A stretch of DNA of 64,000 nt from Euglena gracilis (taxonomy: Eukaryota), in assembly GCA_039621445.1 (NCBI GenBank), contig CP154954.1, forward strand, positions 33,333,455-33,397,454, in the 5' to 3' direction. Shown in pieces: positions 9,007 through 50,800 of this stretch. The notes below the pieces were generated by a model, which was not told the origin of the DNA, made no database searches, and saw nothing but the letters and a program-made list of their open reading frames with translations. The position numbers and the translations under genes are program-made. Within the stretch, counting starts at the first letter, position 1. Each line of letters begins with the position of its first letter.

Positions 9007-9038
<32 letters not shown>

Positions 9039-9625
9039 CGACTTTTTGACCGAAAATCACCCAAAGGCAATGGGTTGGCAGCCCAAAACGGGGGGCTGGC
9101 GGGTCGAAAAAACGCTCATTTTCGGCTCAAAAACAAATTTTCCGGGTCCGGGAGGCCAAAAAACATCGTTTCGGGCAAAATTTTTTTTCGATTTTTTTCG
9201 ACTTTTTTGACCCGGTGTTGACCCAAAGTCAATGGGTCGGCGGCCCAAAACGGGGCGCTGGCGGGTCGAAAAACGCTCATTTTCGGCCCAAAAACAGTTT
9301 TTCCGGGTCCGGGAGGCCAAAAAACATCGTTTCGGGGAAAAATTTTTCGACTTTTTTTTTACCCAGTTTTGACCCGAAGGCAATGGGTTGGCGGCCCAAA
9401 ACAGGGCGCCGGCGGGTCGGAAAACGCTCATTTTCGGCTCAAAAACGGTTTTTCCGGGTCCGGGAGGCTAAAAAAGCATCGTTTAGGGCAAAAAAAATTT
9501 CGATTGTTTTCGACTTTTTTGACCTGGTTTTGACTCAAAGGCAATGGGTTGGCGGCCCAAAATGGGGCGCTGGTGGGTCGAAAAACGCTCATTTTCGGCT
9601 CAAAAACAGTTTTTCCGGGAGGCCA
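8780..9625. repeat. Tandem array of about 150-160 bp units containing a long poly-T tract
   Basis: Motif CATTTTCGGCYCAAAAAC recurs at about 9117, 9278, 9429 and 9590. Poly-T spans about 8921-9038. Confidence 0.85.
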
Positions 9626-10046: not shown

Positions 10047-10356
10047 CAGGCTTCTGCTTAAGGGATTGCAGTCCCCCCCCCCCCGGGGAAAGGGCTGGAC
10101 TGAAGCTAGTCCAAATTTGGCCGCTAGCCCGTTTTTGGCCATTTTTGGGAATTTTTGGAACAAAATCAGCCAAAAATCTATTAAAAACCTGATTTCCACC
10201 TCGGCGCGCAGCGCCGGAGGAAAAAATTTTTTTCCAGTTGGGGGGACCCCCGGACCCCCCCCCCCCGAGGGGGGGTCTAGCTAGTCCATTTTTTCCAGTG
10301 TCTAGCCGATTGGCTAGCCAGTACCCCCCCCCCCGGGGTCCTTAAGCAAAAGCCTG
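10047..10356. mobile_element. hAT-like MITE (CAG...CTG termini, 8-bp TSD)
   Basis: TIR CAGGCTTCTGCTTAAGG / CCTTAAGCAAAAGCCTG (16/17). Flanks ACGGGAAT / ACTGGAAT (7/8). Confidence 0.85.
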
Positions 10357-14700: not shown

Positions 14701-15095
14701 TTGTATTGAAAACACACCCCAAACTTGATCATATGTCATACCCCCATCCTTTGTGCGTGAAATTTGACCAGCTGTGAATGTGGTTCCTCCAAAAGGGCAT
14801 AGAAAGGGTACAGGGGGAAAAAATGATGGAAAAATGACGGGAAATTTTTGGTGGTTTCCCATCATCTTTGTTTCCCATCATTTTTGTCCGGACTGTGCAC
14901 ACGAAAGCAAAGCATCAAGTCGTTGCACACTTTTTGCCATAAATTGTGGTTTATTGAATTTTGTATGTGAAGCTTTTTTGGCTTTAAATGGGCGTTGGGT
15001 GATTCTGGTTCCAGCATTTGTTTCCTTCAATATTGGGATGAATGCGTTCACTCACAGATGGAGAATGGAAGTCCAGTGGCAGCCTCACTGTGTGC

Positions 15096-18000
15096 TCACC
15101 TGCGCGTCCCTCACGTCCCTCACCCTGCACCTCCACAAGAACAAGATCGAGAGTGCCGGGGCGGAGGCGCTCGCGCTGCTGCAGCGGGCCGCCTCCCTGC
15201 ACACCCTGTGCCCAGGGCCGGGGCTCCACGGACGGGGCTGATAGGTCCAGGGCTGCCCTTGGAGGAGTGGGAGCACACCATTTGTAGGGGTGGGTGGTAT
15301 GCTCCAGGGGTGGGGTCAAGGCAGTTTATCCGCCTCGGGGGTGAAATTGATATCCGCGATTTTTCCGCGATTTCCGCAATTTTCCATAACTTCCCGCAAT
15401 TTTTCAGCATTTTTTTCCCTTTGAGCTTTTTTTCTCGCATGAACCTGAAATGGAAGGCGAAACGAGTTCCGGCCATTCCTGAACGTTTCACAAGGGAATC
15501 AGGTGCTTTTTTGTCATTTTGTTGCAAATTTGCCAAAAGTTGCCAAAAATATTTTAAAACTTGACAAAATTCTGGGTCTTTTTTAGGTTTTCCCCCAATT
15601 TCTGCTGGGAAATAATTCTGCTCACCTGACCAGATTTTACCCGAGACCAAAGTTTTCGGCAACTTTTTGCCAGTTTTGGCTTTTTCACCAAGAAATTCCA
15701 TGTTTCCCGAACGAGCATGTTCCAAATTACAAAAATCAAGTTTTTAGACCTTTTTGTTGGAAAAAATGTGAATAACGGCTCAAAAGATACACCTGTGTTG
15801 CAAAATGAGCAAATTTGTGAGTTTTTTTTTTCCAACCCCCACTTCCAGGAGAAGTGCACTAATTTTCAAAAACACATTTAAAAAATTTCCTGCAATTTTT
15901 ACGCAGTTTTTCCGAAAGACTCTGATATCTATCCCCCACCCCTGCACCCTTGTGTGTCCCAAGCACGCGAAAGTATGCCAAGCACATCAGATAACACTGA
16001 CCCCCCAGGTCATCCTGTGTATATTTTCTGTAATTCTTGTCCAGTGCACAAGGAATTGAATGTCACAAGGAATGAATAAAAAAAATACGGAGGTAGCCCA
16101 ACTGCAAACCTCGTCCCTGCCTCTGCTTGAACTTGTGGGACAACCAAGTGACGTCGGATGGTGCCGTTGCATTGGCACGCCTCAAAGATTCTGTTTGGGT
16201 CTCTGCCAATTTATCTTCTGAGCCTGCTTTGATGCATCACATTTCAACAGCAAATCCCAATCACAAGTAGCATGGGAGCCTGGCCTTGCTTGGACACTCC
16301 CCACAGGGGTGTCCAGCCAGTCAGCTGCTTTTCCAGCGAAGTTAGCTTTGGCAGCCGATCTCGCATTTCAGCCGTATCTCGTCCCGTTTGCGCAACAAAG
16401 GTTTTACCTAAGGTTTTACATTTCTTGTTTTTTTTCAGGTTTTACAATTTTTTTACATTTTTTTTCGGAACGCAGGGGAAACAAAACTTGGAAGAATTTA
16501 GATCAGGCAAAAAAACACAAAAATTGAGCCTTTGCCCCGGGGTTCAAATGGTGGCGATCCTCATGTGAGGGGACAGTTTGGAGAAATTCTAGAAAGGGTT
16601 TTTTAATTTTGAAGCTTTTGCAGTAGGTATGTCTGACATGAAAGCACCATGGAAACAGCCCTTGAATTAGTTGTGGTGTGGAGGAGGACTCGAGGAAAGA
16701 GTGTCCGGGAATTGCATTGTAAACCTCCCAAATTTCAGCACGGATGTGCGGAAAGCGGGGGCACACGTCTTTGGGCCTTCTGTCAATTTTCTTCAGAATT
16801 CCATCAGAATTAGGGTTCAACCCCCTATTTTTTTGAAAACCAAAATTGTTTCAAGACCACAAAAATGTTCTTTTTTCTGGGAAAGAAAGGGTACTCAAAC
16901 AAGTTCTGGGGTTTTTGTTTTCCATGTAACCCCTCATTTAGACAGATTTTTTTTATGTTTGGACCTGGGGGGTGTGGGGTGAGCTGGTCTGCTGGAACCT
17001 CCAGGGTGGGTTACCCCTCCAAATTTAAACAACCCCTCCAAAATTAAGCAGCACCCACATTTAAGCAACCTTTGGGGCTGAACCGATCGACATGGTGGGT
17101 GAAATGCCGGTGTAATCACTTAAATACATCGCAGTGAGTGTTTCGCCGACCAGGTCAGCTTCCCAAATTGGCCTCCAAGCAGGCGCTCGACTTGAAGGTC
17201 CAGGCGAAAAGTTGAAGCGTGGGCCGATTTCTTCCCCCCCCCCCCCAGTCCCTGCCCAGGACCTGCTGCAGCCCATCCCCTCTTCGGGGGGGGGGGGTAC
17301 TGTGAACCCGAAAAACAGCAGCCTGGCCTGGGCAGTGCACAACGGCAGGTGTCTCCATAGCACACGGCACATACACTTTGCATGTGTGTTTGGGAGCCTT
17401 CTGGCAGGGGTGGGTGGGGGGACCCCTCCCTCCCTCCATCCTGGTCTTTAAGAAATCCCTGCATTGAAGGCTTGGCAGGGGTCTGGACCCCAGAACTGTG
17501 CGGGAATCCTTGAACCCCCATGGGTATGGGTGGGGGGATGGGGGGGGCTAGCATGCATTCCAACCGGCAGAGGTCCCACCCCGCATCCCTTCGTGTTCTG
17601 GCGCTTGACCTTTCTGACAACGCCGTGGGGGACAGGGGTGCTACTGCCTTGGCTGGTTTGATTGGGCTCTCCACCGTGTGGAGTGGTTTATGCAATGGGA
17701 AGCACCGTAACGCAACGTCCCCATAACGCTTTACCGGGACAGTTTTATTTGGAACGAACCTTGTTTGGCACCTCTTGGCACCTCTTCTTTTGGCAGAGGT
17801 GCCAATAGGTAAGGTGCAGATGGTGCCAAAGTACAACAAGTGACAATCCTGCCAGGGTGAACTTTATTAGCCAAAACCTGCAGTCCAACAACTAAATGAT
17901 ATTGATGAATTGCATTGGGGGGAACCACAGTTTTCATCTACAATGAAGAAGGCCCATACTGGCCATCACACTGGAATGACTTCTTGTCACCCGTTTCTTA

Positions 18001-21000
18001 AAAAAAAGTAGGTGCTGATAACATGGCTATAAGAGTTTTTTTTCCACCTTTTTATTATTATCATCCTTTTTTGATTGGCTTTGGAGGGCCTTCCTCCGTT
18101 CCAGCCACTGCATTCGTTCTATTGTGTTCACTGTGTCAAATTGTCAACCACGTCTATATCTTTGGCATGCAACTAGATTTCCAAGACAGTAGTGATGTTG
18201 CGCGAACTCAGAACGGTCCAATCGTTTAAAAAAGGCAGTTGAAAGTCAAAAAAAAATCGTCATCTGTCGCTGGATTCAGCTGTTTCAGGCTATTCATGTG
18301 CTCTTGGTCATTCCCATTATGGAGTGCTCACTCGCTGCCAACTCTCAGCCTGTCGTGGGTTGTCCACCCTGCCCACTGTCCTTCACACCTCTCGTGTGCC
18401 AGGCGTTTGGAATCAACTTGGCCACGGCCTGTCACCCTGGCCCATATGGCACGGCCATTGGGGGGGGGGTAGTATAAAGCCCCCCAAATATAAACCTCCG
18501 CAGGAGGTTTGGTTTTGCCCGAATATAAAGCCCTCCCCAATGTGACACCCGCCGATCAGGGAAAACAGATGGGTGGATGTAACAATTTCCCACCAGAAAT
18601 TCTCCATTTTGGACAAAAATTGCAAATTCTGAGGTAAATTTGAGGTACACAATGAAAATTTGGTATAATTTTGGCACTTGACTGTGGTTGAAGGCTGCCA
18701 AAGTCAGGATGGGCCACCCAGAAACAGTCGATCCCCCCCAATTTTAAACTCCCCACCCCAAATATAAAGTCCCCCTTGAGGGTCTTGAAATCCCGCCCAA
18801 ATGTGAAGGGGGGGCTTTATATTTGGGGGGGGGGTTAGGTAAGGGCAGCCTCTCTTGCACAAGTGTCGTTGAAACTGTGCCAAAGCGCACTTTCGGAATG
18901 CCACCTGGCATTTCCATTGAAATGCTGTGTCGTTCACACGGCAAGTTGTTGCCCTCCCCTGTGTCAACAACACGTTCTTGGAACAATGATGTGTAACAAC
19001 AACATCCTTGGACAAAGAGGGGGTACCCGGGCCTGTCATCTCCTGATAACTGAACCAGCTTCTTTTTAGCTCAGAAGACCCCCACAGGGGGGGGGCTGGG
19101 GCCGAACCTCCTTCCGGGGTGGAGGTTCGGCCCCAGACGGGCCGAACCCCTGGAGGTCCGGGTTTCAGCGCGAAGCGCTGGAAGGTTTTTTTTTTTGGGA
19201 AATGCCTTCAGAGAGTCCGTTTTTGGGGATAGTCCCCGCTGTCCCGGGGGGGGGGGGTCCTGTGCCCGGCTGGGTGGGGGGGGGGGCCCGCCCTCCCCCC
19301 GGGCGCTTAAAAATAGAATCCTCATCCAGTTGGGAGAACTTTGCCTCACTGCGACCGCCGTCCGCTCCAATGCCGGACCTCGCAAAGGGCGCTGCCGCCG
19401 ATGCTCGACCTCCACAACAATCGGGTGGGGCCGCTCGGGGCGGCGGAGCTGGCTGGACTCCAGCGCCACGCGGGCCTCGCTCGGCTGTGCCTCGACCAGG
19501 CCGTTTTTTAAGCTGGTGCCGACCCCACCCCGGGGGGTGGGTAGTGCCTGCCTGGGCAGGCACCCCAAGGCACTCCAAGCCCAAACCCCGGGGTTGGTAA
19601 AAAAAAAAAGCCTGGCCTCGACCTCTCCCACAACGAGATTGGGGACATCGGGGCCTCCGCCCTGGCGGCCGCCGCCCTCCCTGTGGTCCCCCTTGAAGTG
19701 TTTTGCCATAAAGCTGCCTTTGGGTGCCTGGTGGCGTTGTATTTTCCAGTCCTTGGTGAGGGGGTATCAAAAGCATTGGGAAATGCTGAAGGTGCAGAGA
19801 AAAGCGTCACAAAGGACTGATATTTAAATTTGTAAAACTTTTCCTGAAAATTCCTCCTCCCTAGGGGAATAATGGACAGCCAATTGATCCACTTTTTTTT
19901 ATTTTTGCAATTTTCCGCAATTTTCTGCAATCTTCCCACAATTTTCAGCAGTTTCCCCTCGGTTTCCTGCATTTTGCCTCAATTCCCGCAATTTCCTGCA
20001 AATTCTCCAATTTTTTTGCTTTGCAAAATTTATCGCATCAATGAGTTCCGGCCATTCCACGGATGATATAAAAACGAAGGGGTAACACAAGTACCTTTTT
20101 CGTATGTGTTTACATTTTCTCGAAATCTTGGCAAATTTTTGTCAAAACCCGGCAAGGCCGGCCAATTCGGCAATTCTTTTTTTTCCTTTAAGTTCTGTTG
20201 GTAAATGATTTTGCCTTCAATTTGGACCAGATTTATCCCAAGACGAAATTTTTTGGCAAATTTTGTCATTTTTTTTTATTTTTTGGGCCAACGAAATTGC
20301 ATATGTTGTGGAAGCAGCATGTTTCCAAAATAAGAAGAAGTATAATTTTGTAATATTTTGTTGGAAAAAATGCCAAACAATGTTGCAAAATTTCTGGAGC
20401 AGTTGAAAAATTTTGCAGGAGTACGTGATTATTAGTTACTTCTATTCGGGGTGTAGCTCAGAATCGTGTCCTTCCAGCAGAAATGTGTACATTCCTGATA
20501 TCAGTTTTTTCCTGCAATTTCTCTGATGGCCTCCAATATCAGTTATTCCCCCCCCCCCCGTTTCCCTCTCGGTTCATTGATAATTTGCATTCTTCTGCTG
20601 AGGTTTGAGTTGAGCTTGGCATTGGCAGATTTCTGTTGAAAGGCAGGTTTCCAGCCACCCTTTTCATTCTACTTCAACGGGCTTGGGTCCTTGGACAAAT
20701 AAAATGCTCCAGAGTTTGTGAGAGTGAACAAGAGCCAGCGGAAGGGAGTGGTGGCATCCCCGTTTATGTCCCAATCCCGAGGTGGTGGGGGGGGCACCGA
20801 ATCCAGGCAGGTCGGCGGGCCGGAGCCTCGCCCACATGCCAGGCCTCCAGTGGCTGTCGCTGGACGTGTACAAAACCGACATCGGCCCGGCCAGCGGGGT
20901 GCCCGGCGCTGCCAGAGACCCCACCCTCCCCCTCCACCGGCAATCCCAGCCCACTGGACGGGAACCCCCTTGTGCGTGGCGGGGGCCCAAGCGCTGGCTG

Positions 21001-24000
21001 GACTGGGGGCGGCCCCGGCACTGCACACGCTGCGGCCAGGGCCGGCGGCGGCCCCCGGGCCCGCCCCGGCGCCCCCAGTCCGCAGGGCATGGGAAATAAA
21101 AAGAAAGGGGGAGCAACCACGCTTCTTAGGAAGGTCACAACCCTTCGGGGGTATGGCACCTCCAGCACAAGGCACCCATAGGGGTTGTTGAAAAGGAACC
21201 CGGGAGCCAGGCATTTTTTAAGGCAATTTTTTTTTCAAAAATTTACAGCATTTTTTAAGGCTTTTATGGCATTTTAAGGCTTTAAAGGCTTTTAAGGCGT
21301 TTTAAGGAGCCATTTTTCAGCCCTGTCCATTAAGGCGTTTAAAGGAGCCATTTTTCAGGGCTGTTCAAGGGCTGTGTGGGCATCGAACCAACATTTTTGA
21401 TTTTGCACGAGGTCCAAAATCAAAAATCAAAAACATACTTTTATTTATTTTTTTAATGCCAGAAATCATCATTTTTTCCCCGGAGCTGGCCTGTTTTTGC
21501 CGAGATTTTGCGCTTTCATTTTTGCTCAGTCGGAGAAAAATTCTGCCCATATTTTTAAGCTGCATTTAAAAACATTTAAGGTTTTGGCGCGTTTGAAAAA
21601 TGATGATCCCTGCCTGGAGGCCCCTCCGCCCCGGTCCACTCGCCAGACCTTGTCGATTGCGGCCGAGTGTTGTGCCGGGTGTTGCCGGCGACCCACCGGC
21701 CGCGGCCCTGGCGGCACCTGAACCTGGGCCGCAACCCCATCGGGGACGGCGGGCTGGCTGCGCTGGCGGGGCTGCGCACCGCCGCCCGCCTCGGCACCCT
21801 GTCCCTCGACGCCGCCCGGGCCCACATCGGCCCCGGCGGGGCGGCGGCGCTGGCGAGGGGGGCGGCCTCTGCCATACCCGAACGAGGGATCCGTGACCCG
21901 TGTGTGACCGCTGTGACTTTCCAACTTCCAGCTCTGTTTGTACAGTGGCGGTGTTTCAATGGCCGCGACAGACGGGCCATTGATCAGTTTGGACCCTCGG
22001 GTTGGTGTGCCCCCCCCCCTCGCCGGCCAGGTCCCCGATGGGCCCCACTGCCGCAGGCGGGAGGCCGCCCCCGCCGGGCTGCTGGCGCAAGCGCCGCTCC
22101 TCCACACCCTCCGCCTGGACCTGTCCGGCAACCACCTCGGGCCGGACGGCGCCGAGGCCCTCGCTGGCCTCCGGGCCTCCACGTCCCTGCGCTCTCTGGC
22201 CCTCAACCTGAACCAGAACCAGCTCCGCCGCGGGCAGAGGGCAGTGGCCATGGCTATCATTGTTTCCGCCAATCAATGACGACGATTGTTTGACGTTGAA
22301 GTGATGGTTTTGATCATGACTTGTTTTTGCAGTGGACACGCAAGAGAATTTGGTGAAAACCCGTTGTGAAAATCTGAAACTTTGGGAAACCCCTGTTGTG
22401 CAACTCGCTCATTCAGAGCCTGATCCATAGAGCTGCCCTTTTCCCACCGTAGATGACAAAATTTGGTCTACTTTTGGGCCAAATCGTAACCCTAACCGTA
22501 TCCCACACTAGTGGGCCTGGCCTCCTGGGTAAAAAGCTGCCAATATCAACCCTTGGATATCAAACCAAATTATTCATTTAGATTCGTCGGCACTCCCCCT
22601 GTCCAATCATACGGGCACTCCCCGTGGCGAGGACCCCACTGGTATTCCGTCACCAATGCTCCAACCTGTCCCCTGGGCCCGATGGGGTTTGTTGGCTGGC
22701 GCAGCTGCGGGAGATGCGTCAGTTGCAGACGGTGGTGCTCCAGCTGGGCCTCGGCCAGTGCTCCGAACCCATATGGCCGTGCGGAGGAAAACAATCACAA
22801 GGCCTGAGCTAAGGATGTTCCAGATACAGGGTGGAACCCCCTTTCATAGCCTTCGCGCGTGAATAACTTGGGCCTGGCGGGGAGTTGGGGGTCAAACGGA
22901 GGTGATTCGGAAGGCAGCCCGAAACTACTGGGCCCCCCCGGGGGGGGGGGCCCAGTAGTTAATCCGGGGGGTCAAAATTTTTTTTTGCGTTAGTGATGGA
23001 ATAGGGTTAGGTGCGCGACTTAGGCTTAGGGTTAGGCCTAACTTGTACACCGAACACCCGTCTATAAATTAGGCCTAACCCTAAGCCTAAGTCGCGCACC
23101 TGACCCTATTCCATCATTAACACAAAAAAACTATTCTGACCCCCCGGATTAACTACTGGGCCCCCCCCCCGGGGGGGGGGGGCCCAGTAGTTTCGGGCTG
23201 CCATTCGGAAACTAGAAATCCAGTCGCTCGCGACTGAAAAAAAAAATTCCGGGAACCGGGCCAGGATCATGGTGATAATCAGTCGGTTCCCAAGGTGGCC
23301 CGAGGGGAGGGGGGGGGGTTGGACCCAGGGGTAAGCTTCGCTCTTACCCATAAAGAGATAAGAGCTCAAGCGACCCCCCACCTACAACCCCCCAGGGGTT
23401 AGAGGTGGGGGGGTTTAGGAGGTCCCTCCCTCCCCCTCATTCATGGGCGAGGGGGGCCGGACTGAGGACGATGCCGATAAAAGGCCGCAGACTCTCATTC
23501 CCCTCTGGCAGGACTTTAATGTGCACCAGATAATGATTGGGGTCTGTAATTCAGCCACTGTTCAGAAGGTGGAGGCGGCCCGCCCCCCCCCCCCTCTCTT
23601 CCGACTTTGCCATTTTGCTGGGGTCCAAAAATCGGTCAAAAAATCTATTTTTTGAAAATATCTCGAGAAAACGTACATTATTTCCGGAAATGTGGGTCTG
23701 ACGAAATGCACCCCCGGAGGCCCTCTATCGCCCCCGTTCGCCGTTTTGGCCGCTGACACGCCTGGCCCGTGTTCCGGCGCGCTTTTGCGGCCCAAAACGG
23801 CCATTTGGGGGGGGGGGGTTTTGGGTCGTTTTAGGGTCAAAAAATCGGTTTTTCCAAAATATCTCGACAATGAATCAAAATCAAAGAAAATGTCCGGACT
23901 GCAAAATTGAAGCCCTTGGAATGGTTTATTTTTCCCCCAATTCTTCGTGTAGCCCGAGTTACCATTTTCCGTTACCGAGTTACCGAGTTACCGAGTTACC

Positions 24001-27000
24001 GAGTTACCGAGTTAGCCATTTTTCGGCCAATTTTGGCCCATTTCAGGGGCCATTTGGGCTGTTTTCGGGGTCAAAAAATCGATGTTTTAAGATATCTCAA
24101 AAATGAAGCAAAATCAAAGGAAATGTCTGGAGACCTAAATTGAAGCCCTTAAAATGCCCTATCTAACAGTATTTTGATTTCCCCGCATCTCCCCGCCTAG
24201 CTCGAGTTACGGTCATTTTTTTTGGCCGATTTTGGCCGTTTTGTACAGTTTTGGCCTGATGTGACTTGGCCGTTTTCGGCCCTTTTTGGTCAAAAAAGTC
24301 GAAAAAAATCGAAATTTTTTTGCCTGAAACAATGTTCTTTGGCCTCCCGGACCCGGAAAAACTGTTTCTGAGCCGAAAATGAGCGTTTTTCGACCCTACA
24401 ACTACCTGTTTTTTTTTCTTTGCACGAAACCCATGCAGTTTGGCCAGGAACGGGTCAAAGAAGTCGAAAAAAATCGAATTTTTTTTTGTTCGAAACGATT
24501 CTTTTTGGCCTCCCAGACCCGGAAAACCTGTTTCTCAGCCAAAAATGAGCGTTTTTCGACCCTGCGCCCCGTTTTGGGCCCGAAACCCATGGAGTTTGGC
24601 TCTAAAATGGGTAAAAAAAAGTCAAAAAATCCTATAAAACGGGTATGGGGTGTATGGGGGGGATTATCATTGTCATTTCAGAAAGTTCCGTAAAATCATT
24701 GAAAGTCACCGTAAATTGAAAGAGTGTAATTTGTAAATTAAAAATTACGCGAACTTTGCAATGCTAGTCTTTTCGGCATTCCATCACATGCATGTCCCAT
24801 TAAGAGCTCAGCACTACTCAAAACCTGGTTTAATGTCAAACCCAGGGTGGGGGTCAGATCTGAGGGCTTCGTCTGCCCTGGGGCGCCTTCTTCGCTTTGT
24901 AATACCATTGATAGGTAATCATCAAACTTGCTAATGATAAACCCTACTGCGGCCAGGATGGAGGGTGGGCACATGAACCCCCCAAACAAAAATCCCCCCA
25001 GTTATTTTTTGGACACTCGAAGTCAGGGTCCCGGGGAGGGGTGATATTTGGAGGTTATTATCAGGGCAACAGTTTTGAAGTCAAGAATCGACCCAAAAGC
25101 GTTTCAATAGGTTCTAATCATCAATATTTTGTCATTTTTTTGCACTCTTTTCGACATATGTTCTGCACCAAACCATCCCTTTTTGTTATTTTTGCAACAT
25201 TCCCGCTCATTCTATTCTCTTTTTTTCTTTGCTTTCATCTGTCGGAGGGGGTGTTATTACTTGAGCAGCTGAAGTCAGTCCTCGGGAGGGGGGGTTCGAA
25301 GGCCGGAAAATGTCATTTTGGGGGAAATTTTTCCTCACGACCAGGCACAACTCGGGTGGGGGGTTAGTACCGCCCGAAGTAACCCCGAGACGAGCTTAAT
25401 GAAATTCAGCCTGGCGGGTGTAGGACCGGGGTGGGCCACTGGCACGAACCAGCTGGGGGAAGGTGCGCCGAAGGAGCTGGCTGCGTTGGGCGCCTCCCCG
25501 TCACTGGAGTGGCTGCCCAGGTGGCCCTGGAGGGGCGGGGAGACACCGCCGCTTTTTCTGCTGAACAATCTGCACCGCCTTGAAGTCACTGCGCCCGCAC
25601 CAAAGACTGTGAAACAACGTCTTTCTGGGTGTGGAGATGGCATTGCAATTGTTTTTGTACAAGGCAACATGGCATGCGGGTAGCAGGGCCCCCCCCCCCC
25701 CCCGGGGGGGCCCCCCTGCTACCCACGACCCTGCACCTGCCATTAGCGCACCTAACCCTACTCCTTCAATTAACCCCGTAATAGCGCAACATGGCCATAT
25801 TGCGCAACATGGCCATGTTGCGCAACATGGCCATGTTGCGCTATTATGGGGTTAATTGAAGGAGTAGGGTTAGGTGCGCTAATGGCCATGTTGCGCTAAT
25901 GGCCATGTTGGCAGGTGCAGGGTCGTGGGTAGCAGGCCCCCCCCCCCCGGGGGGGGGCCCCCCTGCTACCCGCCTGCCGGCAACATATATATTTTTTGAA
26001 CCCTGTTCAATGAGCAACGCAACGGACCAATTTTCAGATCCCAACTCCTTGTGAATCTGGTGCAACCCCCCCCCCCAACAGAAGCTCTGGGCGGCTGCAT
26101 GGTCCAACCCATTTGCACAGGCGCTCCCAGAGGTGCATTCTTTGCTAAAAATGGGCCTTCTTCATGTTCCAAAAGAATATTGAATTAACTTTATTGGAAA
26201 GCCATGGAGGTCGGTAGTAGGCTTTTCTTTTTTTAAGCCAGCAGCCCCCCCCCCCGGGGTGGGTGGGTGGGTCTGGGACCGGACCCCCCCCCTAGGGGGT
26301 CCCAGGCTGGAGGGGGGGGTCCCCAACCCACCCAGCCCAGCGCTGGACCCCGGGGGGGGGGGGACAAAATCGGGCCGTCTGAGGGCATTTCCCAAAAAAT
26401 TTCGGCGCTTTGCGCCGAAACCCAACCCGGTGGGGGTCTCAAGAAGAAGTCTGTTCGGTAGGCCCGGACCATAATGGTCGGTGGAGCACCTGGTCAGGCA
26501 GTCTCCACTTTGCTGGGCTTTCTGAAGAATATCAACAAAAATCTTCCAGGCGGGATCAAAATAGAAGCGCCACCTGAGGTGGCGGATTGCATTGAGCGCT
26601 CCCATACTTCTATTTGGGGGGTTGATGGGGGCTCGTTTTACCGACCTGGTTAAGGTTTTTACAGGCATTTTCAAAAATTTAAGGCATCGATTTTCTAAGG
26701 GAAGTCCCAAGGGCCATCCCAGGATAGAATGGGGGTCAGAATCGAAACAGTTGGAAACCCCATTTTTTCGAGTGTCCGACAGAGAATTTTTCCAGCAATG
26801 CCAGAAATCAGTTTCCCCTGGAATTAGCTTGCTTTTGCCAAGAGTTTGTGACTTCATTTTCAGCTCGAATTTTGCAAATCTTGCTGTGGTGGGTGGGGAG
26901 GGGGACGACCACTCCCTTCACCCCATCCTGGGTGGGGGAGTGGGGGGGGGTCCACCCCACGTCAGGCATTTCGCTGTTTCTGGGCATCCCTCACCTCTCC

Positions 27001-30000: not shown

Positions 30001-31786
30001 TCAGACGACGGCGCGCGGGCAGGGCTGAGCAGGACTCCCAGACACCCTGTGGGTGTATGGGTGGTGGGTTAGGCGTGGGGGACCCCTTTCCCCATTTCAT
30101 AGCAAGCATCCTGTGTTGGCTTCTTTGGTGCCAAAGGAACTTTGATTTGCCCGGTGCCATCTGGGCAGGGCGGGGTCGACGACATTCCGGCGGGGTCGAC
30201 AACATTCACGGGGGGACCGACATTCCGGCGGGGGTCTGCGACGTTCTGGTGGGGGTCGGCGACATTCCGGCGGGGGTCGGCCGACATTCTGGCGGGGGGT
30301 GGGCCAACATTCCGGCGGGGGGTCAACAACATTCGGGGGGGGACCGACATTCTGGCGGGGGTCTGCGACGTTCTGGCGGGGGTCGGCGACATTCCGGCGG
30401 GGGTCGGCCGACATTCCTGACCAGCCCTGCGCGTGGGCGCTGGCCACCCTCCGCGATGCCCCCGCCCTGCGGTCGCTGGTCCTTGACCTGTCCTGGAACT
30501 GCGTCCAGGCGGCCGGGGCAGGGGCACTGGCCCTGTTCCACTCGTGCCCCCGCCTGGAGGTGCTGCACCTCCGCCAGGGGGCTGCCATGCAGAGCGCAGC
30601 ACTCCCCTGTGCTCTCGCCCGCCCCTTGGCAAGCGTCCAGAGTGGCGGGCTGGGGATGATGGGGGGTCTCTGTTGCTGCCTTTGGTCTGATCGACGACTG
30701 CGTGTCATTTTGAGTGTCTTTTTAAAAGTGTACTTGAAAAAGGTTGATTTTCAACACCGGAATTGCCCTGCCTGACTGGACTGGCAGCCCCCCCCCCTCC
30801 ACCGGGTTTGGAGAAGCCTACCCTGTTCAGGCAAAGCCCCGTCTGTGAAGCTGCCCAGAAACCCGACAAAAACCCTACTCAAAAGCGGCAATTGGTCGCT
30901 CTGCCGCACCAACGCCCCCCCCCCAAGTGGCAGCGCCATGCGAGTGACCTGGCAGGCAACCCGGTGGGCACCGCCGGGGCGGTGGCCCTCAGCGACCTGT
31001 GGCGGGCGCCGGGGCTGCGGGTGCTGCACCTGGACCTGCTGGGCTGTGGGGTGGGGGATGAGGGGGCGGCCGGCACGGCGGCCGCTGAGACTCATCATAT
31101 ATTTTGGACATTGGGGTCTGTCCAACCACATAACCCCCCCAATAGAAGTGCGGGGCCGCTACAAGTGCAGGGTCAAAATAAAGCGCACCCCCCGCCGCCG
31201 AAGGCGGCGGTCCGCAACAAGCGCACCCCCCCCCCATTTTGATGGGATTTCTAAAGGAAATCAACAAAAATCGTGCACGTAGCACACACCCCCCACCGCC
31301 GGAGGCTGTGGTCCGCTATAAGCGCACCCGTGCTTCTATAAGGGGGGTTACACTATGGAAATAGCGCTGGAAGAGGGTTCCTCCAAGGCCTGTGAGAAGG
31401 GGTGCTTTCGGCGCACACAATGCGACCTCCCCACCGGACACTTGTCACCCCTGGGCAGTTGTCACCCCTCCGGTTGTGCTGCCCACCATTCCCAATGCCA
31501 GAAGCGGGGAATGGAAACTTCAGATGGCCCGGTTTTGGGGGAGGGTCCCACCCCGGGCTGGGGGGGTCGGGGACCCCCCTCCCTCCCCCCTCCCCTCGGC
31601 GTCGTAAAAGAGCCGGACCAGGACGGGCCGGAACGGGGTTGGGAATGGGGTTGGGAGGGGCCCCGGCGGCCGCGGTCCCCCAGCCTGGTGGCCCTGCGGC
31701 GTGCCCCGCAGCTGGCCAGCCTGTCCCTGAACCTCGCCAGCAACCCGGTGGGGGGGTCTGGCCGAGCCGCACTCACCGCCCTCCGC
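15096..31786 (+). CDS. Multi-exon leucine-rich repeat protein (RNI-like, about 28-aa repeats)
   Basis: Inferred exons: 15096-15209, ~17583-17675, 19400-19493, 19620-~19667, ~20821-20888, 20978-21033, 21716-~21855, ~22079-22231, 22681-22752, 25447-25514, ~27439-27476, ~27970-28079, 29954-30016, 30435-30571, 30946-31071, 31682-31786. Joined, they give repeated LxxLxLxLxxNxIGxxGAxALA, e.g. LARLCLDLSHNEIGDIGASALA and LRSLVLDLSWNCVQAAGAGALA. Some small exons are probably missed. Confidence 0.85.
18470..18841. mobile_element. MITE family with CCCCCCAAATATAAA termini
   Basis: Inverted CCCCCAAATATAAA / TTTATATTTGGGGG ends. Related sequences at about 29147-29535 and 35556-35760. Confidence 0.55.
19497..19614. 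mobile_element. 118-bp hAT-like MITE inside LRR coding sequence; corresponds to nonconventional intron 19494-19619
   Basis: Perfect 8-bp TSD GCCTCGAC (19489-96 and 19615-22) and termini CAGGC...GCCTG. Removal restores ARLCLDLSHNEIG. Confidence 0.92.
22913..23202. mobile_element. Foldback element with nested terminal palindromes
   Basis: About 135-bp inverted arms around a very short loop. Each arm has ACTACTGGGC-Cn-Gn-CCCAGTAGT and TAGGGTTAGGTGCGC (one mismatch in the right arm). Confidence 0.85.
23956..24014. repeat. 8-bp tandem repeat (GAGTTACC)n
   Basis: GAGTTACC units seen directly. Confidence 0.85.
24280..24640. repeat. Inverted copy of the 8780-9625 repeat unit
   Basis: GGCCTCCCGGACCCGGAAAA and GCCGAAAATGAGCGTTTTTCGACCC are reverse complements of motifs in that array; about 2 units. 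Confidence 0.8.
25671..25978. mobile_element. Foldback element with nested palindromes
   Basis: Arms GGGTAGCAGG(G)C-Cn-Gn-CCCCCCTGCTACCC and TAGGGTTAGGTGCGC. The centre holds repeated GCGCAACATGGCCATGTTGCGC palindromes. Confidence 0.85.
26218..26453. mobile_element. hAT-like MITE (TAG...CTG termini, 8-bp TSD)
   Basis: Flanks GTCGGTAG / TTCGGTAG (7/8). Termini TAGGCTTTTCTT / AAGAAGAAGTCTG. Confidence 0.75.
28778..28856. repeat. (TTC)n microsatellite
   Basis: Seen directly; interrupted once. Confidence 0.9.
30020..30429. mobile_element. hAT-like element corresponding to nonconventional intron 30017-30434; contains a ~21-bp minisatellite
   Basis: TIR CAGGGCTGAGCAGGA / TCCTGACCAGCCCTG (13/15). 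Flanks CGCGCGGG / CGCGTGGG (7/8). CGACATTCCGGCGGGGGTCGG-like units at about 30170-30415. Confidence 0.85.
31131..31350. mobile_element. Tc1/mariner-like MITE remnant inside an intron
   Basis: Inverted TAACCCCCCCAATAGAAG / CTTCTATAAGGGGGGTTA. Confidence 0.55.
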
Positions 31787-35410: not shown

Positions 35411-38400
35411 ATGGAGGCTGCTGTCCGGCAAGGGGCCCCCCCTGCCTGCGGGGCCCGAGGCTTCCGAGACCACATCCGGGTGGTCGTCCGCATCCGACCC
35501 ACCGCCACCCCGGACGCAGACACCGCTTCAGCCACGCTGCTGCAATGGTTTGTTGGGGGGTTATACTTTGGGGGGTGTTATGGGATGGGGGTTATAAGTG
35601 GGGGGCAGGTTTAAAAAAAAACGTTGCGTGATTTGCCTTGAATCGCACCCTCAGCCCCCAAAATATAAAGCCCCCCCCCCCCTGAGGGCCTGGAAATCCT
35701 GCCCAAACACAAAGACGGTGTGTGTGTGTGTGTGTGTGTGTGTTTGGGGGTTTTACCCCTTCCTCCCCCCCCCCATGGGACAAATGGCCAAAGTGCCACG
35801 GAGCAGGTGCCAAGTTGCCTGAACCTGAGAAAAGACCAGGTTTCGTCCTCCTTTCTTTTTACAGACTTGCAGTGCAGCATTCACAGGCAGCACAACAGGC
35901 CAAGGCAAACTCTCGGCCAAACCCCACCAATTGCACACCCCCCCCCCAGGGCAGGTTGCGCCTTCATAGGGTCGCCCTGCCGCTGGAGCGTCCTGCCCTG
36001 AATCAGCAAGGCGTTGAACACGTCGCTCCGGTCGGGTTCAAACCGTCGCGATGGATCGCCGGCGGAATTGCGGCGCGCGACTTCATACTGCGCCGGCCCG
36101 CCGGGCTAACCGTCCCCCCCCCCCGCCGCCCGACAGCGGCGTGCCCCCCGTCCTCCCCGTCCCCCGTGGCCTTCCTCTCCGACGTCGTGCTCTGCGCCGG
36201 CCTCCCGGCCCGCCCGGCCCCGCCCCGGCGGTTCCCGGTTGACGGCGTGCTGGGCCCGGGCGGCGACCAGGCGGACGTGTATCGCGAGGTGGGGGCCCGG
36301 GCGTTGGCCCTGGCCCTGGACGGCTTCAGCGCCAGCGTGCTGGCCTACGGTGTGCAATACCCACCGGTGAAGTCCCTGCCGTTTGCCCCTCCACGGTCTG
36401 GAGCTTCCAACCAGTCAAAAGTTTGTTCCGGATTCCGGAACTTTCCTTGCTTGGTGATTCCCCCCCCCCACATCCAACGACCCCCTATGTCCCATGACCA
36501 CCCCCCCCCGGTCGGAGGACGCGTTTTTGGAGGTTTGGCCAAAAATTTTAGCCCGCCACAAATCGCTGGGCCGAAAAAAAATTGCTGCCCAAAATCGGCC
36601 AAAAATGTCACTTTGGGCGCTTTTTTTGGACCAAAAATTGAGTTAAGGTTACCAAGGCGCAAAGTGCCGGAAGCGAAATTTTAACTATTTTGAAGGGGGA
36701 GTTCCCGGGTACCCTCCGGTTTTGTTGTGCTTTTTTTTTGAGGACAGAGGTTACCGGTTGTTGGACATGGGGGGGGCTACCAGCAAGTCCTATGATCAGC
36801 CTCCCCCCCCCCAGGGGTGATCAGGCTTACCCTTCGTTTGTGGCTCCGCGAAAGCAGCCTCCTCAGCGACTCGGAATCGAATCAAACAACCCATGGCGTC
36901 TGCGTCGCTTCCCTGCCCTGTTCCACCCCCTCCCCCTGCCAGGCCCCAGCGGCACTGGGAAGACGTACACGATGATGGGCACGCCCGACGCCCCCGGCCT
37001 CGTCCCCCGCCTGCTGAAGGACCTCTTCGCCTCGATCTCGGCCACCCAACGGCTCGTCCCCCCCCCCCACCGCCCCCTGTGTCGTGCCGGGGCCGTCCCA
37101 AAGCCGTCGGGTGGCTCTGCCTGACGGGGCCTCCTGCCCCACCACCCCCTCCGCTGCCTCTGCGGTGGAGGGAAGGCGGGGGACCTTCTCCGTGTCGATG
37201 GCCTACTTGGAGATCTGCAACGAGAGGTATACATGAAGGGAAGGGCGAGCTCCTAGCCATCAAGGGTTGGAGGTATGCAAGAGTAGGCTTCCGTTTAGGT
37301 AATTTTATTACGTTTTATCCCACTTTTTCACCTGATTTTTGTCAGTTTTTCTACATTTCCGCATTTTGAAATAAATTGACGATTTTTGGAATCAAGAACT
37401 GGAAATAGGAAACTCCAAAAAGTGCAGAACTCATCATATCAAAGTTTATGCTTTACGGGTTGTTGTTGTTGTTGCTGCTCTTGTTGTTGTTGTTGTTTTT
37501 ATGTGTTTTTTTTTGAGGTTCTTGTTGCATTTATTTCGCTTTCGCACAGACAAAGAAACCAAAAAGCATTTTTCATCGCGGTATGTGTGGACCCTTTCTT
37601 CCAAGCCACGAGCCTTCCCTTCCCAGGGCCCGGGACCTGCTGGACTGCCCGGCTGACCAGGCTGGCAAAGGCCTGGGCCGAACTTCAACCAGCGAGGTCA
37701 AGACGTTTCGCCTCGTGAACGACCCGAAGCACGGGCCGGTGTTGAAGGGTCTGACCCCGAGGGTGGTCAGGTCCACACCCCCGCCGACCCCTCTCGTGGC
37801 CTTGGGTGTTGGGGGGTGTTCCTTGTTCCTTGTTGAGCCCTCCAAAACAGAGGCCCATTCTTCTAGTTGGACCCCGCCTGGTTGATTTTTGTTGATTTCC
37901 TTCAGAACCGCCATAAAAACGGGGCTGTCCTTGTAGTGCAGTGCAGTGTAGTGCACCGCCGCCTTCGGTGGCCGGGAGTGCGCTTTTATTTGGACATTGC
38001 TCAGAGCGGCTCCGCGTTTCATGGGGTCGCCTGCTTAGGACGTGGCGGCAGGCGCTGCATTTCCTGGAGCGGGGACAGGCGCAGCGCACCGCAACCGAGA
38101 TGGCCGCTCGGTCCACCTTCATCGTGCAACTGAATGTGCAGAGAGTGTGCTGTGGGATGTGGTGCTCTGTGGTGGGAGGGATGTCTGTGCACATTTGAGC
38201 TGGGGGAAACGTTGAACCTGCAAGTGTGCATCACAACCTTGGATGCAGGAGACCAATGTGATCTGCCCTCTGAACAGTTTAAACAGGAGGACCGAAACAG
38301 TTGATGAGAACAGAAGGAATGTCGGAGATGCTTGAAACAATGCCACAGTTTGCTCTCTGTATTTCAGTCTGCAAACCTGTGACTAACAAATCTCAGGAAT

Positions 38401-40214: not shown

Positions 40215-40279
<65 letters not shown>

Positions 40280-40430
40280 ACCGGCCCATTTGTCACCTCA
40301 CTGTGTGCTGGTGTTGATTTTGGCGCTGGGTGCTTTGCGACGGGGACCGCCGGGTTACAGGAGGCGGCAGCTGGAGGCGGAGCGGGCCGCCCTGGAGCAA
40401 CGCCAGGTGCAGGACACCTTGAGGCCGGAG
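35411..40430 (+). CDS. Kinesin-like protein: N-terminal motor domain and coiled coil (multi-exon)
   Basis: Exons: 35411-~35513 (IRVVVRIRP), ~36183-36349 (FPVDGV..DQADVY..GFSASVLAYG), 36943-~37043 (GPSGTGKTYTM P-loop), ~37114-37226 (SMAYLEICNE), 37627-37770 (ARDLL), 38039-38135, 38443-38508 (LVELAGSER), 38788-38881 (FLNKSM), 39548-39717 (HGPFRDS..SLGGG..VSP..EETLATLR), 39923-40098, 40361-40430. Most junctions are GT-AG and keep frame. Confidence 0.9.
40099..40276. repeat. (TG)n microsatellite at the 5' end of a kinesin intron
   Basis: Seen directly; similar tracts at 35718-35742 and about 49195-49330. Confidence 0.9.
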
Positions 40431-41419
40431 GTGTGGCAGTGGCAGTGGCAGCGGCCGGATGTGCTGAGCAGTTGATCAAATTCGGACCAGGGATTTTTAA
40501 AGGTCGGACCCCCTCGGGGGGGGGGAGGGTGGGTGGGTCTGCTGGACCCCCTTCCGGGGGTGGAGGGTTGGGCCAAGTGGGTACCCCCCCAGTTTTAAAT
40601 CCTTCTTTAGAAAGGGCCCAAAATCCTGCCACCCTTGTGTGAAGCAGAAGCACCCCTGAAAATGTCGGCATAAAGTCGGCACATTCTGAACCGAAGCAAA
40701 CATAAATTGAATGAGAATTTTGTCGAACCCGAAATCAATTTTTTGCCTGAAAGTGAGATCTTGATGTGTGTCGTCGTCATCTTTTCAAGGGGGTTTCCTC
40801 TTTTTCTTTGGCGCGAAGCACTGAAAAGCATTTGGATCCCAAAAATTGACCCCAGGGGTAGCCAGATGTTGTGTCCCAGACACTGCCCAGCCTGTCAGAA
40901 AAGGAAGTTGCCGGGGTCCACTGCCTGAAACGGTGTCTGGTTGAATACCAAATGAATTCAGCTTTGGCCACGAAGTGCCCATCCACAATTTACTCCTAAA
41001 ATCTACAAAAACAACGGCATTTTGAGTTTTTTGGGGGGTAAAACAAACATGTCTGGACCCTGGACATTCCTAATTTGTCCTTTTTTGGACGAAGTACTAA
41101 CCTCAACTGCTGCTGATGAAAGCAGTCTCAGAGTTGCTGCGTTTCCCCCAACCTGCATAGGTCGCAGTCGGATGTGGTGAGCCCCCTGAGCATGCAATCG
41201 CTTTCGGTCCCGTCCCAAATCCAGTCGGCTGGGGCGGTTTTACAATACACATTGGACCTTCGAAGAATCCCTGCCAAAATGGCCTTCATTTTCGAGTCGC
41301 TTTGTTGGAGGGGTGGGGGGAAGCGTTCCAACAAAACCATACGTCATCTGCTGGAAGACATACACAGGCCAAGAAGCCAGGCAGGCACTCTCAAAATGCA
41401 GCACCCAAAAGCGATTGGA

Positions 41420-47800: not shown

Positions 47801-50800
47801 CTCTTTTAGAGGCGGCATGCTCCCAAATTACAAAAAAATCAAGGCTTTCAACATTTTTGTTACGCCTGACTTACCCTCACAACGCATTGAGTCCAACTTG
47901 AGTTTTGCATTTTTGCCAAGCTCGTTCTTCCAAGGTCCACATTCTGCCCCCCCCCCCCTGCACAAAGAAAATGACCCAGAAAAGAGCCCTCCGAGCTGTC
48001 CCTTTGTCCTGCGGGGTGATCCGAGGGTTTTTGTGCAGGGTCCCACGGCGTGGCCTGTTTTGCATCGGGTGCTGAGGAGCCATATGGCGGGGGTTGGGTT
48101 CCAACCATGCCGCCCCGCTTCGCAGTTGGTGTGCCCGCAATTTGGCGGCCGTCAGCCTGCTGCAAGGGCTGGAGTTTTTTTTTCCCTTTCACCGAAGGAC
48201 GCCACAGGGCTGGGGCTGGCCAAAGGCCAGTCCAGGGCTCAAATGGGTCGAGATCAAAATGGCAGACCACCGCATTTTTTTTTGCCGGTTTTGGGCAATG
48301 GGCCAACATCTCTGCACACTTTCCTCGGCCATCCTTCCTGAGGAGTATCCGTTGACTGTCCCGGGACAGCAGCAGAGCTTTTCGGCAAGGGCCCTGTAGG
48401 GCTGCCCCCCCCCCCCCCAGGAGCAGCGTGCCGCCCGGCCTCAGGAGGGCCGCCGGCGGCGGGGGACATGCCGCGTGCCCAGTCGATGCCCGCCCTCGCC
48501 TCCCCCCGGCCGGCGGTGCTGTACCGCCCGGAGGAGGGCCCGGCCGCTGCCGCGCAGTGGGCCCCCCGCCCCTTGTCGAGCCGGGGGCAGCAGCCCGCTT
48601 CAGGCGTGGCCGTGCCGTGTGAAGTGTTCATGGCTTTGCTTTTGAAAGTGGGCCACTGTGGCGGTTGAAAATGAGATGGTTGAGAATGGCAAATGAATGC
48701 AGATGGGGAAAAAATGGAAATGAACAAAACTGGCCTGGGAAAAACTGGCGAAACAAAATCCTTACAAACTTTCTCTGCCATTTTGGCCGAGACTTCAATT
48801 TCTGCAACTGCAACTGCAACTGCAATTCTGCTCCAAATCCCCCCCTCCGGTAAAGCGAGTTGACGACCACATTCGCTCTAACCCTTTGCGTTTTTTTGTG
48901 TGTTTTTTTGTGTCGCCTTCTTTGAGGGTCCATGTTGCCCCCCCCCCTGCCGACCCATCAAAGCCCGGCGGCATTCGTCATGCATTGTGCCCCCCGTCCG
49001 CAGGCGGCGGCCCTGAAGCGGTGGTGGCGGCGCGGCCGTCGGCCCGGGTCCTGGAGACCCCCCGTGTCGCCCTCATCTCCCCGCGGCCTGCAGAGGACTG
49101 CCGGACGCCCCGGGTGCTGGGCAGTGCGAGAGGTGCCCGCCCAAGTCCCTGCACTGAACAACTGCAAGCTCACAGTGCACTTAAATGCAAGAGCGTGTGT
49201 TGTGTGTGTGTTTTTGTGTGCGTGTGTGTGTGTGTTGTGTGTGTGTGTGTGTGCGTGTGCTGTGTGTGTTTGTCTGTGTTCGTGCGTGCTTGAGTGTGCA
49301 TGCGCGCACGTGTGTTGCGTGTTTTCCCTTGTGTGCACACACAACCTCTGCAGGGGTAGGGATGGCCCACGGCTCAGCCAGCTTCGACCTCCCCGGCCGC
49401 TCCCCCGACCTCCGGAGGGCCCCTGGGGACGGCCCTGGCCAGTCCGTGCGCTACGTGGAGGACAGCTGGGCGGTGAGGAGCACAGCCGTCCCTCGCAGCA
49501 CGGGTCGAACCCCTCGCTCTGTTTTCAGCACTCTGCAGGAGGGCTCAGTGTTTGAACATAATGTCATGATGGATGCATTGGTGTGTGTTACTTTGGATGG
49601 GAGAGATCTTCAAGCCTTATGTGTTCACGTCCCAGATGTAGTGCATGTGCAGTGTGTGAAGTGTGCAAGGTAATGCAGTGTAGCACCATGTGAACCACGT
49701 TTTGCAGTGCCCTCTTGGGTTGTCTGCCTGAGTCACATTACAGGGTGGAAGGCCGAACAGATTTGTCCAAATAACTTCGCCCCCATCTGGGCTGACACAG
49801 CAAAGATAGACATCTCACTCATGGGACAGCCAAAACAATCACTTTCCAATGAATGCACCATTCATCCGTCTGTTCGGTGCGGAACAGAATCCAAAAACTC
49901 AAAGGTCAGGCACAGGGGTTTTTTTAGTCTTGGACCCCCCTCCCCCAGGGGGGGGAGGGGGAGGGAGGGTGGGTCCCTTGGACCCCCCTCCCCCCGGGGG
50001 GGGTGTGGGGGTAGGGGCTGGTGGGTATATCTTTCTCGACGCCGAAGGTGCCGAAAGTTTTGAAAAAGGTGCTTTTTTTTAGCATTTTTGCCATTTTCGG
50101 GCAAAAGTGGGTGGGTCCCCCGGGACCACCCCCCTCCCCCGGGGGGGGGGCCCACCCCAGGGGGTGGGTGGGTGGGTGCCGACCCCCTCCCCCCCCCTCC
50201 CCCCGGTCTTAAAAAAACACCTGGTCAGGCGTGAGGGAAGTTGCCTCCCTTCATAAATCTATTGACAACTCGCCCTGCACGCCATTGGGGCATTTTCTGC
50301 ACCACCTGTCGACATTTTGGCAGCCTCCTTGAGTGACGCTGCTTCCGATGTGGAGTGCAAAGTCGTTTGGGTCGGCCTGTTTAAGACTCAACATTCAGCC
50401 GGGAGAGACCACAATTCTAAGAATACTCACAGGCACGCACAAACCCTGTCAAGCAGGGCACAAGCAACAGAGTGTCCTGCTCCATGAAAAAACCAGTTGG
50501 CGAAAGGCAGGCTTCTTGGGACTTGAAAAAACAGCAGCTTCTCAGTCTTGTTTCCAGCGTCCATGACCGAACTTCCTGCATACCTCCTAAGGCAACCCCC
50601 TGCCCCTCGGACCACTGGGGCCTGGACAGTCGTGCTGCGCTTGGACACAACCTCTCGGCACACCGGGTTGTGGCGATGCTTCGGGTGGGGCACGATCAAA
50701 AAGATCCACGCACCGCCGGCCGTCATTCACGAACCAGAGCAACCGTTGCTTTTCCCTCCTTCCTCCCCGCCCTCCGCAGGTCCGGGGGCCAGGGACCTGG

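Follow-up and report, generated by a model that had tools for sequence, protein, structure and literature searches.

A stretch of 64,000 nt from Euglena gracilis (NCBI GenBank assembly GCA_039621445.1, contig CP154954.1, positions 33,333,455 to 33,397,454 of the forward strand) was analyzed. The whole stretch is called the window, and all coordinates refer to it. The window harbors a ribonuclease-inhibitor-type leucine-rich-repeat (LRR) gene on the plus strand, with repeat motifs from about 15.1 to 31.8 kb. The coding sequence of this gene is interrupted by a 118-bp element with CAGGC...GCCTG ends. An initial annotation, made from the sequence, had interpreted the element as an intact, young, hAT-like MITE (miniature inverted-repeat transposable element) that is removed from the RNA as a nonconventional intron. 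The features of the element and its immediate surroundings were as follows.

19489..19496, plus strand: left copy of the 8-bp target-site duplication (TSD) GCCTCGAC, coding (…C L D)
19497..19614, plus strand: 118-bp non-autonomous element, ends CAGGC...GCCTG, without coding capacity
19497..19509, plus strand: 5' terminal inverted repeat CAGGCCGTTTTTT, pairing with 19602-19614
19523-19541, 19544-19563, and 19584-19595: GC hairpins inside the 118-bp element
19544..19576, no strand assigned: high-copy core of the element, to which numerous records of other loci, DNA as well as RNA, match
19602..19614, plus strand: 3' terminal inverted repeat AAAAAAAAGCCTG, pairing with 19497..19509
19615..19622, plus strand: right copy of the 8-bp TSD GCCTCGAC, a perfect match to the left copy
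19494..19619, plus strand: 126-nt intron in the register fitting the published code, one of 10 equivalent registers

The removal of the element was followed in sequence records placed on positions 15000-22400, namely two transcript-type contig sets (X15 and X17), raw RNA-seq reads (X21), and one DNA contig set (X1). The RNA nature of X15 and X17 is a guessed label, about 5% of the X21 reads were used, and the RNA and DNA runs came from different samples, DNA being represented by the single run X1. One X17 contig of 2,054 nt and its X15 counterpart joined the following chain of exons.

15105-15208, plus strand: exon 1
16124-16192, plus strand: exon 2
17583-17655, plus strand: exon 3
18340-18370, plus strand: exon 4
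19400-19488, plus strand: exon 5 (LRR_6 type, upstream of the element)
19615-19666, plus strand: exon 6 (downstream of the element, …LSHNEIGDIGASALA…)
20823-…, plus strand: exon 7
21714-21854, plus strand: exon 8
22078-22232, plus strand: exon 9

The RNA joint from 19488 to 19615 skipped 126 nt, and nine letters fitted on both sides of it. It was present in one X15 contig (depth 220), one X17 contig (depth 17), and five raw X21 reads with four start places. Inspection of the RNA across 19400-19667, as suggested in the initial annotation, thus revealed that transcripts skip exactly 126 nt. None of the contigs of the one DNA run, X1, contained the joint. An X1 contig spanning 19601-19941 linked the last 14 nt of the element to a T at 19658, the nucleotide present in every RNA record. 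Therefore, the transcribed allele carries the element, at least in X1. Position 19658 was T in all four runs, DNA as well as RNA, and is C in the window; the mismatch is a strain difference or an assembly error.

Loss of the 126 nt restored ...ARLCLDLSHNEIGDIG... in frame, and the restored sequence (…ARLCLDLSHNEIGDIGASALA…) is of the LRR_6 type. With the element retained, the reading would be …LCLDQAVF followed by a stop after 5 codons. The two flanking exons, 19400-19488 and 19615-19666, sum to 141 nt, which is the length of exon 21714-21854. None of the other repeat units of the LRR gene has an intron at the matching place in the LRR unit. The empty allele that had been sought was not encountered in the one DNA run, X1; the absence of an intron at this place from the other units of the gene is indirect evidence.

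The description of a 118-bp CAGGC...GCCTG element between perfect GCCTCGAC copies was borne out, with one amendment. A repeat finder returned a perfect direct repeat of 9 nt, not 8, GCCTCGACC at 19489-19497 and 19615-19623; the right GCCTCGAC copy, too, is followed by the C with which CAGGC starts. Therefore, ten equivalent 126-nt deletions (19489-19614 to 19498-19623) lead to identical mRNA. The chance of an 8/8 flank match, estimated from local composition, was about 2e-5 per site. The inverted arms reported by the repeat finder (19496-19509 and 19602-19615) comprised 14 nt with 86% match, and 10/12 terminal positions were paired in the CAG/CTG register. Inverted ends, small size, and lack of coding capacity are all features of a MITE. 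In the predicted minimum-energy fold, CCAGGC pairs with GCCUGG and the U-run pairs with the A-run. Inside the high-copy core, positions 19544-19563 form a perfect palindrome, GTGCCTGCC TG GGCAGGCAC, that holds the terminal motif in reversed order (GCCTG…CAGGC). Alternative pairings between the internal and terminal motifs could occur.

The intron was compared with the published code for Euglena nonconventional introns, which was defined experimentally and consists of CAG/CTG motifs, spacers of 3 and 5 nt, and a purine acceptor (PMC12501133). In the register 19494-19619, CAG occupies +4..+6 and CTG -8..-6, C|G is found at both junctions, and the downstream exon starts with the purine G. Base pairing can join the intron ends, as evident from the 14-nt arms and the fold. 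In none of the 10 registers were GT-AG, GC-AG, or AT-AC ends present, and the ends of a spliceosomal introner were likewise lacking. The exact 126-nt skip, the absence of conventional ends, and the agreement of register 19494-19619 with the code confirmed that the intron is nonconventional. The arithmetic by which splice geometry was equated with TSD length, 3 + 5 = 8, proved correct as well. As to the proposed cut at 19494-19619, the scarless removal of 126 nt was seen in RNA, and the register itself was deduced among 10 equivalents. The exact cut positions are not observable in principle, because all 10 registers yield identical mRNA and, by the same logic, an identical circle; euglenid nonconventional introns leave as full-length circular RNA (PMC11282704).

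The element consists in part of highly repeated DNA. In X1, the summed DNA word depth, a measure not equivalent to copy number, was 268,677 in the bin 19446-19692 and 38-75 in unique bins. Records from other loci matched up to 19576/19578 and from 19515/19544, and 117 and 53 X1 records broke off at 19576 and 19578, respectively. The core of the element (about 19544-19576) is very highly repeated. RNA reads of other copies, matching from 19515 on, gave a consensus with CAGGC at the same 18-nt offset, and the identity of this consensus to the window over those 18 element positions was 13/18. For a 22-nt piece taken from the high-copy core, a metagenome scan yielded 0 exact matches, and nothing near gathering scores was found in Rfam. 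The identification as a MITE was thus supported by the inverted ends, the 8-bp duplication, and the highly repeated DNA, and was weakened by the lack of a second full-length copy in the window. Other intron segments of the LRR gene (15247-15740, 18705-18951, 19199-19445, and 21422-21668) had X1 word depths of 12,000-62,000. Therefore, the introns of this gene are largely made of high-copy repeats.

Four further elements with CAGG-type ends were located in the window.

10047..10356, no strand assigned: 310-bp CAGG element, inverted ends 13/14, flanks ACGGGAAT / ACTGGAAT matching at 7/8
49913..50223, no strand assigned: 311-bp CAGG element (CAGGGGTTTTTTT… / …AAAAAAACACCTG), inverted ends 11/12, flanks GTCAGGCA / GTCAGGCG matching at 7/8
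30020..30429, plus strand: CAGGG...CCCTG element in the LRR gene, flanks CGCGCGGG / CGCGTGGG matching at 7/8
15213..16119, plus strand: core, CAGGG...CCCTG, of intron 15209-16123 (confirmed by RNA, register +1), flanks CCTGTGCC / CCTCTGCT matching at 6/8

The 310-bp and 311-bp elements have the end architecture of the 118-bp element, i.e. CAGG, a T-run, AAG, and then a C-run/G-run hairpin. When the six termini of these three window elements were aligned, similarity started exactly at CAGG, and the eight flanking columns were unrelated. For the element at 30020, a nonconventional intron is predicted at 30017-30434, the removal of which would join …NRLSDDGAR|ALATLRDAPALRSL…. In the five CAGG elements, adjacent flank repeats matched at length 8 only (8, 7, 7, 7, and 6 of 8). 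The window contained 547 CAG..CTG pairs with an inverted repeat of at least 9/12, and flanks of at least 7/8 occurred in 5 of them compared with a mean of 0.5 in four offset controls. Repeat length was then scanned for 641 CAG..CTG pairs with inverted ends, at most one mismatch being allowed, and the counts were set against the offset-control mean.

k=5: observed 4, control 4.17
k=6: observed 4, control 3.0
k=7: observed 3, control 0.67
k=8: observed 5, control 0.5
k=9: observed 1, control 0.33
k=10-12: observed 0, control 0

The most enriched repeat length was 8, and lengths 5, 6, and 10-12 were at background. Among the five matches at k=8, the one at 15405-15892 is possibly spurious, its flanks being of low complexity. 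Degenerate end patterns were not enriched in the window (4 versus 2.3 expected and 11 versus 7.2). Likewise, perfect 8-mer repeats bracketing complementary trinucleotides did not make CAG/CTG stand out alone (6/183 pairs). As to the expectation that other copies have 8-bp TSDs, the relatives in the window have flanks of 7/8 and 7/8, but full-length family copies with duplications of their own were not seen there.

The best explanation, which we consider probable to a high degree, is a transposon insertion with an 8-bp duplication that is spliced scarlessly as a nonconventional intron. Observed directly in this analysis were the anatomy, the removal of 126 nt, the absence of conventional ends, the fact that the element is repeated, and the 8-nt flanks in its relatives. 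In the proposed sequence of events, a non-autonomous DNA transposon of 118 bp, its inverted ends of the CAGG type, would have entered an exon of the LRR gene, presumably driven by a transposase, with duplication of an 8-bp target, GCCTCGAC. The ends would then pair in the pre-mRNA, CCAGGC with GCCUGG and then the U-run with the A-run, and this pairing would bring CAG and CUG into the positions expected by the machinery of euglenid nonconventional splicing. According to the published code, one cut would lie 3 nt ahead of CAG and the other 5 nt behind CUG. As the duplication length is likewise 3 + 5, the 126 nt made up of the element and one duplicate would leave without a scar, and the frame would be restored.

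Several results weigh against this explanation. A second full-length copy of the 118-bp element was not found in the 64-kb window, in which BLAST gave only 15-21-nt hairpin matches, and a transposase was absent from the Pfam results on 10 long window open reading frames (ORFs). The relatives at 10047-10356 and 49913-50223 share the end architecture of the 118-bp element, not its core. The fold of the intron was only modestly better than that of shuffles (z = -1.98), and the duplication length of 8 within the 9-nt repeat follows only if the ends are assumed to be symmetric. The empty site was sought in one DNA run (X1), and 0 contigs had the empty form. Finally, immediately outside 19515-19576, the window copy is unlike most other copies. 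Given these differing arms, the insertion may not be recent. Its presumed youth derives from the perfect duplication.

Repair of a staggered double-strand break with capture of filler DNA, the 8-9-nt repeat being a repair footprint, appears improbable. Eight-nt direct repeats at a strain-specific nonconventional intron have been interpreted as break repair (PMC4770533), and the 10 long window ORFs, in which no transposase was recognized, are in line with it. However, the inserted DNA has inverted ends and is highly repeated, other copies have CAGGC at the same offset, flanks of equal length match at 7/8 in further CAGG elements of the window, and a constant repeat length of 8 is the product of a transposase. 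It is very improbable that the intron is an ordinary old nonconventional one whose flank repeat results from coincidence or splicing selection. Although short direct repeats border 84.4% of E. agilis introns (PMC12501133), the 8/8 match has a p of about 2e-5, the interior is high-copy, and no other repeat unit of the gene has an intron at this position. Hardly credible is the idea that nothing is excised from RNA and that the transcripts stem from an allele or strain without the element in its DNA. Different samples for RNA and DNA and the single DNA run would leave room for such an allele, but the joined form occurred in 0 X1 contigs, and the X1 contig 19601-19941 ties the 3' end of the element to the T at 19658 found in all RNA records. 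Moreover, three RNA data sets from three studies agreed, and six neighboring introns were spliced out of the same contig.

The superfamily of the presumed transposon was considered separately. Ends of hAT transposons often start with CAG; in their end motif, the second base is A and the fifth is G, and their target is nTnnnnAn. The 118-bp element departs from these motifs: position 5 of CAGGC is C, and the second and seventh bases of GCCTCGAC are C and A, respectively. The two CAGGG elements (15213 and 30020) agree with the end motif, and the nTnnnnAn pattern was not shown by the five duplications. The 8-bp duplication and the short inverted ends of the element agree with the general traits of hAT, an 8-bp duplication and inverted ends of 5-27 bp (PMC4316626). 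In the literature searched, hAT was not mentioned for Euglena. Two Merlin families are present in E. gracilis, both with 8-bp duplications; Merlin ends always start with GG, and the duplication is 8 or 9 bp (PMC8101967). The duplication length of the 118-bp element fits Merlin, and its ends, starting with CA, do not. At a distance of 3.3 kb lies a 290-bp foldback element (22913-23202). Its inverted ends start with GGCAGCCC and match at 14/14, its 8-bp duplication, ATTCGGAA, is perfect, and it has a C-run/G-run hairpin motif in common with the 118-bp element. The GG start and 8-bp duplication of the foldback element would fit the Merlin description for E. gracilis. Given the perfect duplication of this element, 8-bp-duplicating transposition was clearly active in the neighborhood.

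That the 118-bp element is a miniature transposon of a different 8-bp-duplicating superfamily, either Merlin or an undescribed family, rather than hAT is unlikely, if not negligibly so. The two Merlin families, the foldback element with its GG ends and perfect duplication, and the literature searched, silent on hAT in Euglena, are points in its favor. Against it, the element starts with CAGG instead of the GG of Merlin, no GG-start register has matching flanks, and inverted-repeat size and 8-bp duplication are general hAT traits, to which the CAG start can be added. Among known 8-bp families, hAT is the best fit, albeit an unproven one, and we regard hAT as a candidate, at somewhat short of an even chance. 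The designation hAT-like is thus supported by the duplication length and the CAG ends, and is weakened by the fifth base C, the lack of a transposase in 10 ORFs, and the documentation of Merlin in E. gracilis.

The initial annotation had further suggested that the intron consensus is simply a terminal inverted repeat (TIR) plus a split TSD. In a general model, the euglenid code (CAG at +4, CTG at -8, 3/5 spacers) would be the RNA image of one transposon class with CAGG ends and a split 8-bp duplication. Exonic insertions of this class would be erased from mRNA in either orientation, and most nonconventional introns, which number several hundred thousand, would be due to it. We regard this model, with its putative silence in either orientation, as possible, with rather less than even confidence. 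The wider model is plausible and was locally borne out in part. The RNA-defined introns of the LRR gene were all non-GT-AG (7/7), and in each of them the inverted repeat started at +4 and ended at -6, with 9, 9, 8, 7, 10, 10, and 12 of 12 matches. Two introns with unambiguous junctions are included; therefore, the 3/5 geometry holds locally on readable junctions. In favor of the model, the three CAGG-type introns of the gene, one of them predicted, have flank matches of 8, 7, and 6 of 8. The sum 3 + 5 = 8, the frequency of direct repeats at intron borders (84.4% in E. agilis), and the eight-nt direct repeats of a recently gained, strain-specific nonconventional intron (PMC4770533) also speak for it.

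Other introns speak against the general model. Four of the seven RNA-defined introns are without CAG/CTG or flank similarity (3, 0, 1, and 2 of 8), a fifth has CAC/CTG ends and flanks of 3/8, and the flanks of a nonconventional intron in a kinesin gene of the window match at no more than 4/8 in any of three registers. In addition, the acceptor spacer was somewhat flexible in experiments (PMC12501133); therefore, the 3 + 5 ruler is not absolute. Introns without flank similarity may be drifted old insertions or may have another origin. Extended to all such introns, the proposal of TIR plus split TSD is thus contradicted in part.

The kinesin motor gene (35411-44721, plus strand) shares 98% identity, over the exon used as query, with EG_transcript_7892 of EukProt, which points to E. 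gracilis or a very close relative. Of its 11 junctions, 9 were resolved, and the other 2 were left out, with 6 mismatches even in their best solutions. A GT..AG register was available for 8/9 introns and for the first intron (about 35530-36149) there was none. Both intron types are thus present in the window, in accordance with descriptions of Euglena.

In the LRR gene downstream of exon 9, the 3' boundary of the intron after 22232 was sought via inverted repeats, and no convincing solution was obtained. A protein search with exon 22079-22231 for the gene's own transcript returned a best match of 56% identity. RNA of another transcript matched the short stretches 21715-21748 and 22106-22156 only and then diverged from the window, with 16 raw reads on each side and linked variants at 21736/21737. 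Its source is probably a paralogous leucine-rich-repeat gene.

Perfect CCGCCGAT copies at 18549-18556 and 19395-19402 bracket an 838-nt CAG...CTG segment, the right end of which is the 3' end of the RNA-confirmed intron 18371-19399. A reading of this pair as a nested element was rejected, as the inverted repeat comprised only the CAG/CTG triplet and the inner 3' motif was absent; the pair may be due to chance or to nested insertion. Elsewhere in the window, a segmental duplication of about 3.1 kb (45536-48660 versus 60698-64000) has 90-95% identity. It includes a 231-bp indel (61027-61257) without clear target duplication, inverted ends, or CAG/CTG ends. A tandem array of a 151-161-bp unit in 3.7 copies (9032-9619) has an inverted counterpart of 76-86% similarity 15 kb away (24288-24639).

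A transposon origin of euglenid nonconventional introns had been hypothesized before, as the initial annotation noted. A MITE origin was proposed in 2014 from inverted repeats (PMC3935182), and work on diplonemids repeats the idea. A 2024 review labels CAG/CTG as inverted repeats and describes border repeats as duplication-like (PMC11282704). According to a 2025 study, the origins "remain unclear," and slidable introns were set aside in its genome-wide motif analysis (PMC12501133). Intron 4 of gapC in E. agilis ACOI 323 is strain-specific, has an eight-nt direct repeat, and is regarded as a recent gain, for which Milanowski et al. (2016) proposed break repair (PMC4770533). Published precedents thus exist for a MITE origin, for "TSD-like" repeats, and for an 8-nt repeat at a young intron. 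The link of 3 + 5 = 8, tied to a real repeat family, was not found in print. In the full-text literature searched, supplements with junction tables excepted, no paper equated the 3 + 5 spacers with an 8-bp duplication, and no nonconventional intron was shown within a defined repeat family.

The intron described here shares with euglenid nonconventional introns the lack of GT-AG, the CAG/CTG positions, the 3/5 spacers, the purine, the paired ends, and the removal itself (PMC12501133, PMC3935182, PMC4770533). It differs from them in that a high-copy element with inverted repeats can be recognized in it, together with the intact 8-bp duplication, and it is maximally slidable and so belongs to the class set aside in the 2025 analysis. 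Intron 4 of gapC is likewise nonconventional and has an eight-nt junction repeat, but no repeat family was reported for it (PMC4770533), whereas family membership points to transposition here. Conversely, the gapC intron is strain-specific, whereas presence/absence polymorphism was not seen here with one DNA run. The element also resembles hAT-derived miniature elements, with their 8-bp duplication and short inverted ends (PMC4316626), but its fifth terminal base is C, an nTnnnnAn pattern is missing, and no transposase was found in 10 window ORFs. Merlin of E. gracilis (PMC8101967) has the same 8-bp duplications in the same organism group, but its ends start with GG instead of CAGG.

Introner elements offer a further comparison. 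In Micromonas, Aureococcus, and others, MITE insertion with target duplication likewise leads to a precisely removable intron (PMC11282704; reportedly also Huff et al. 2016). Those introns are spliceosomal at GT/GC-AG, with sites partly derived from the duplication, whereas the euglenid code and no conventional site are found here. The locus is a concrete example for the old idea that the odd introns of euglenids began as transposons. In the LRR gene, an intron verified by transcripts is itself one copy of a high-copy element and retains its 8-bp duplication intact, and there is a numerical reason, 3 + 5 = 8, for the absence of a scar. Discarding slidable introns is a bias, as it drops the youngest and most informative ones. 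If the general model is true, such elements could flood genes, and older introns would be those in which the duplication was lost and the end sequence drifted.

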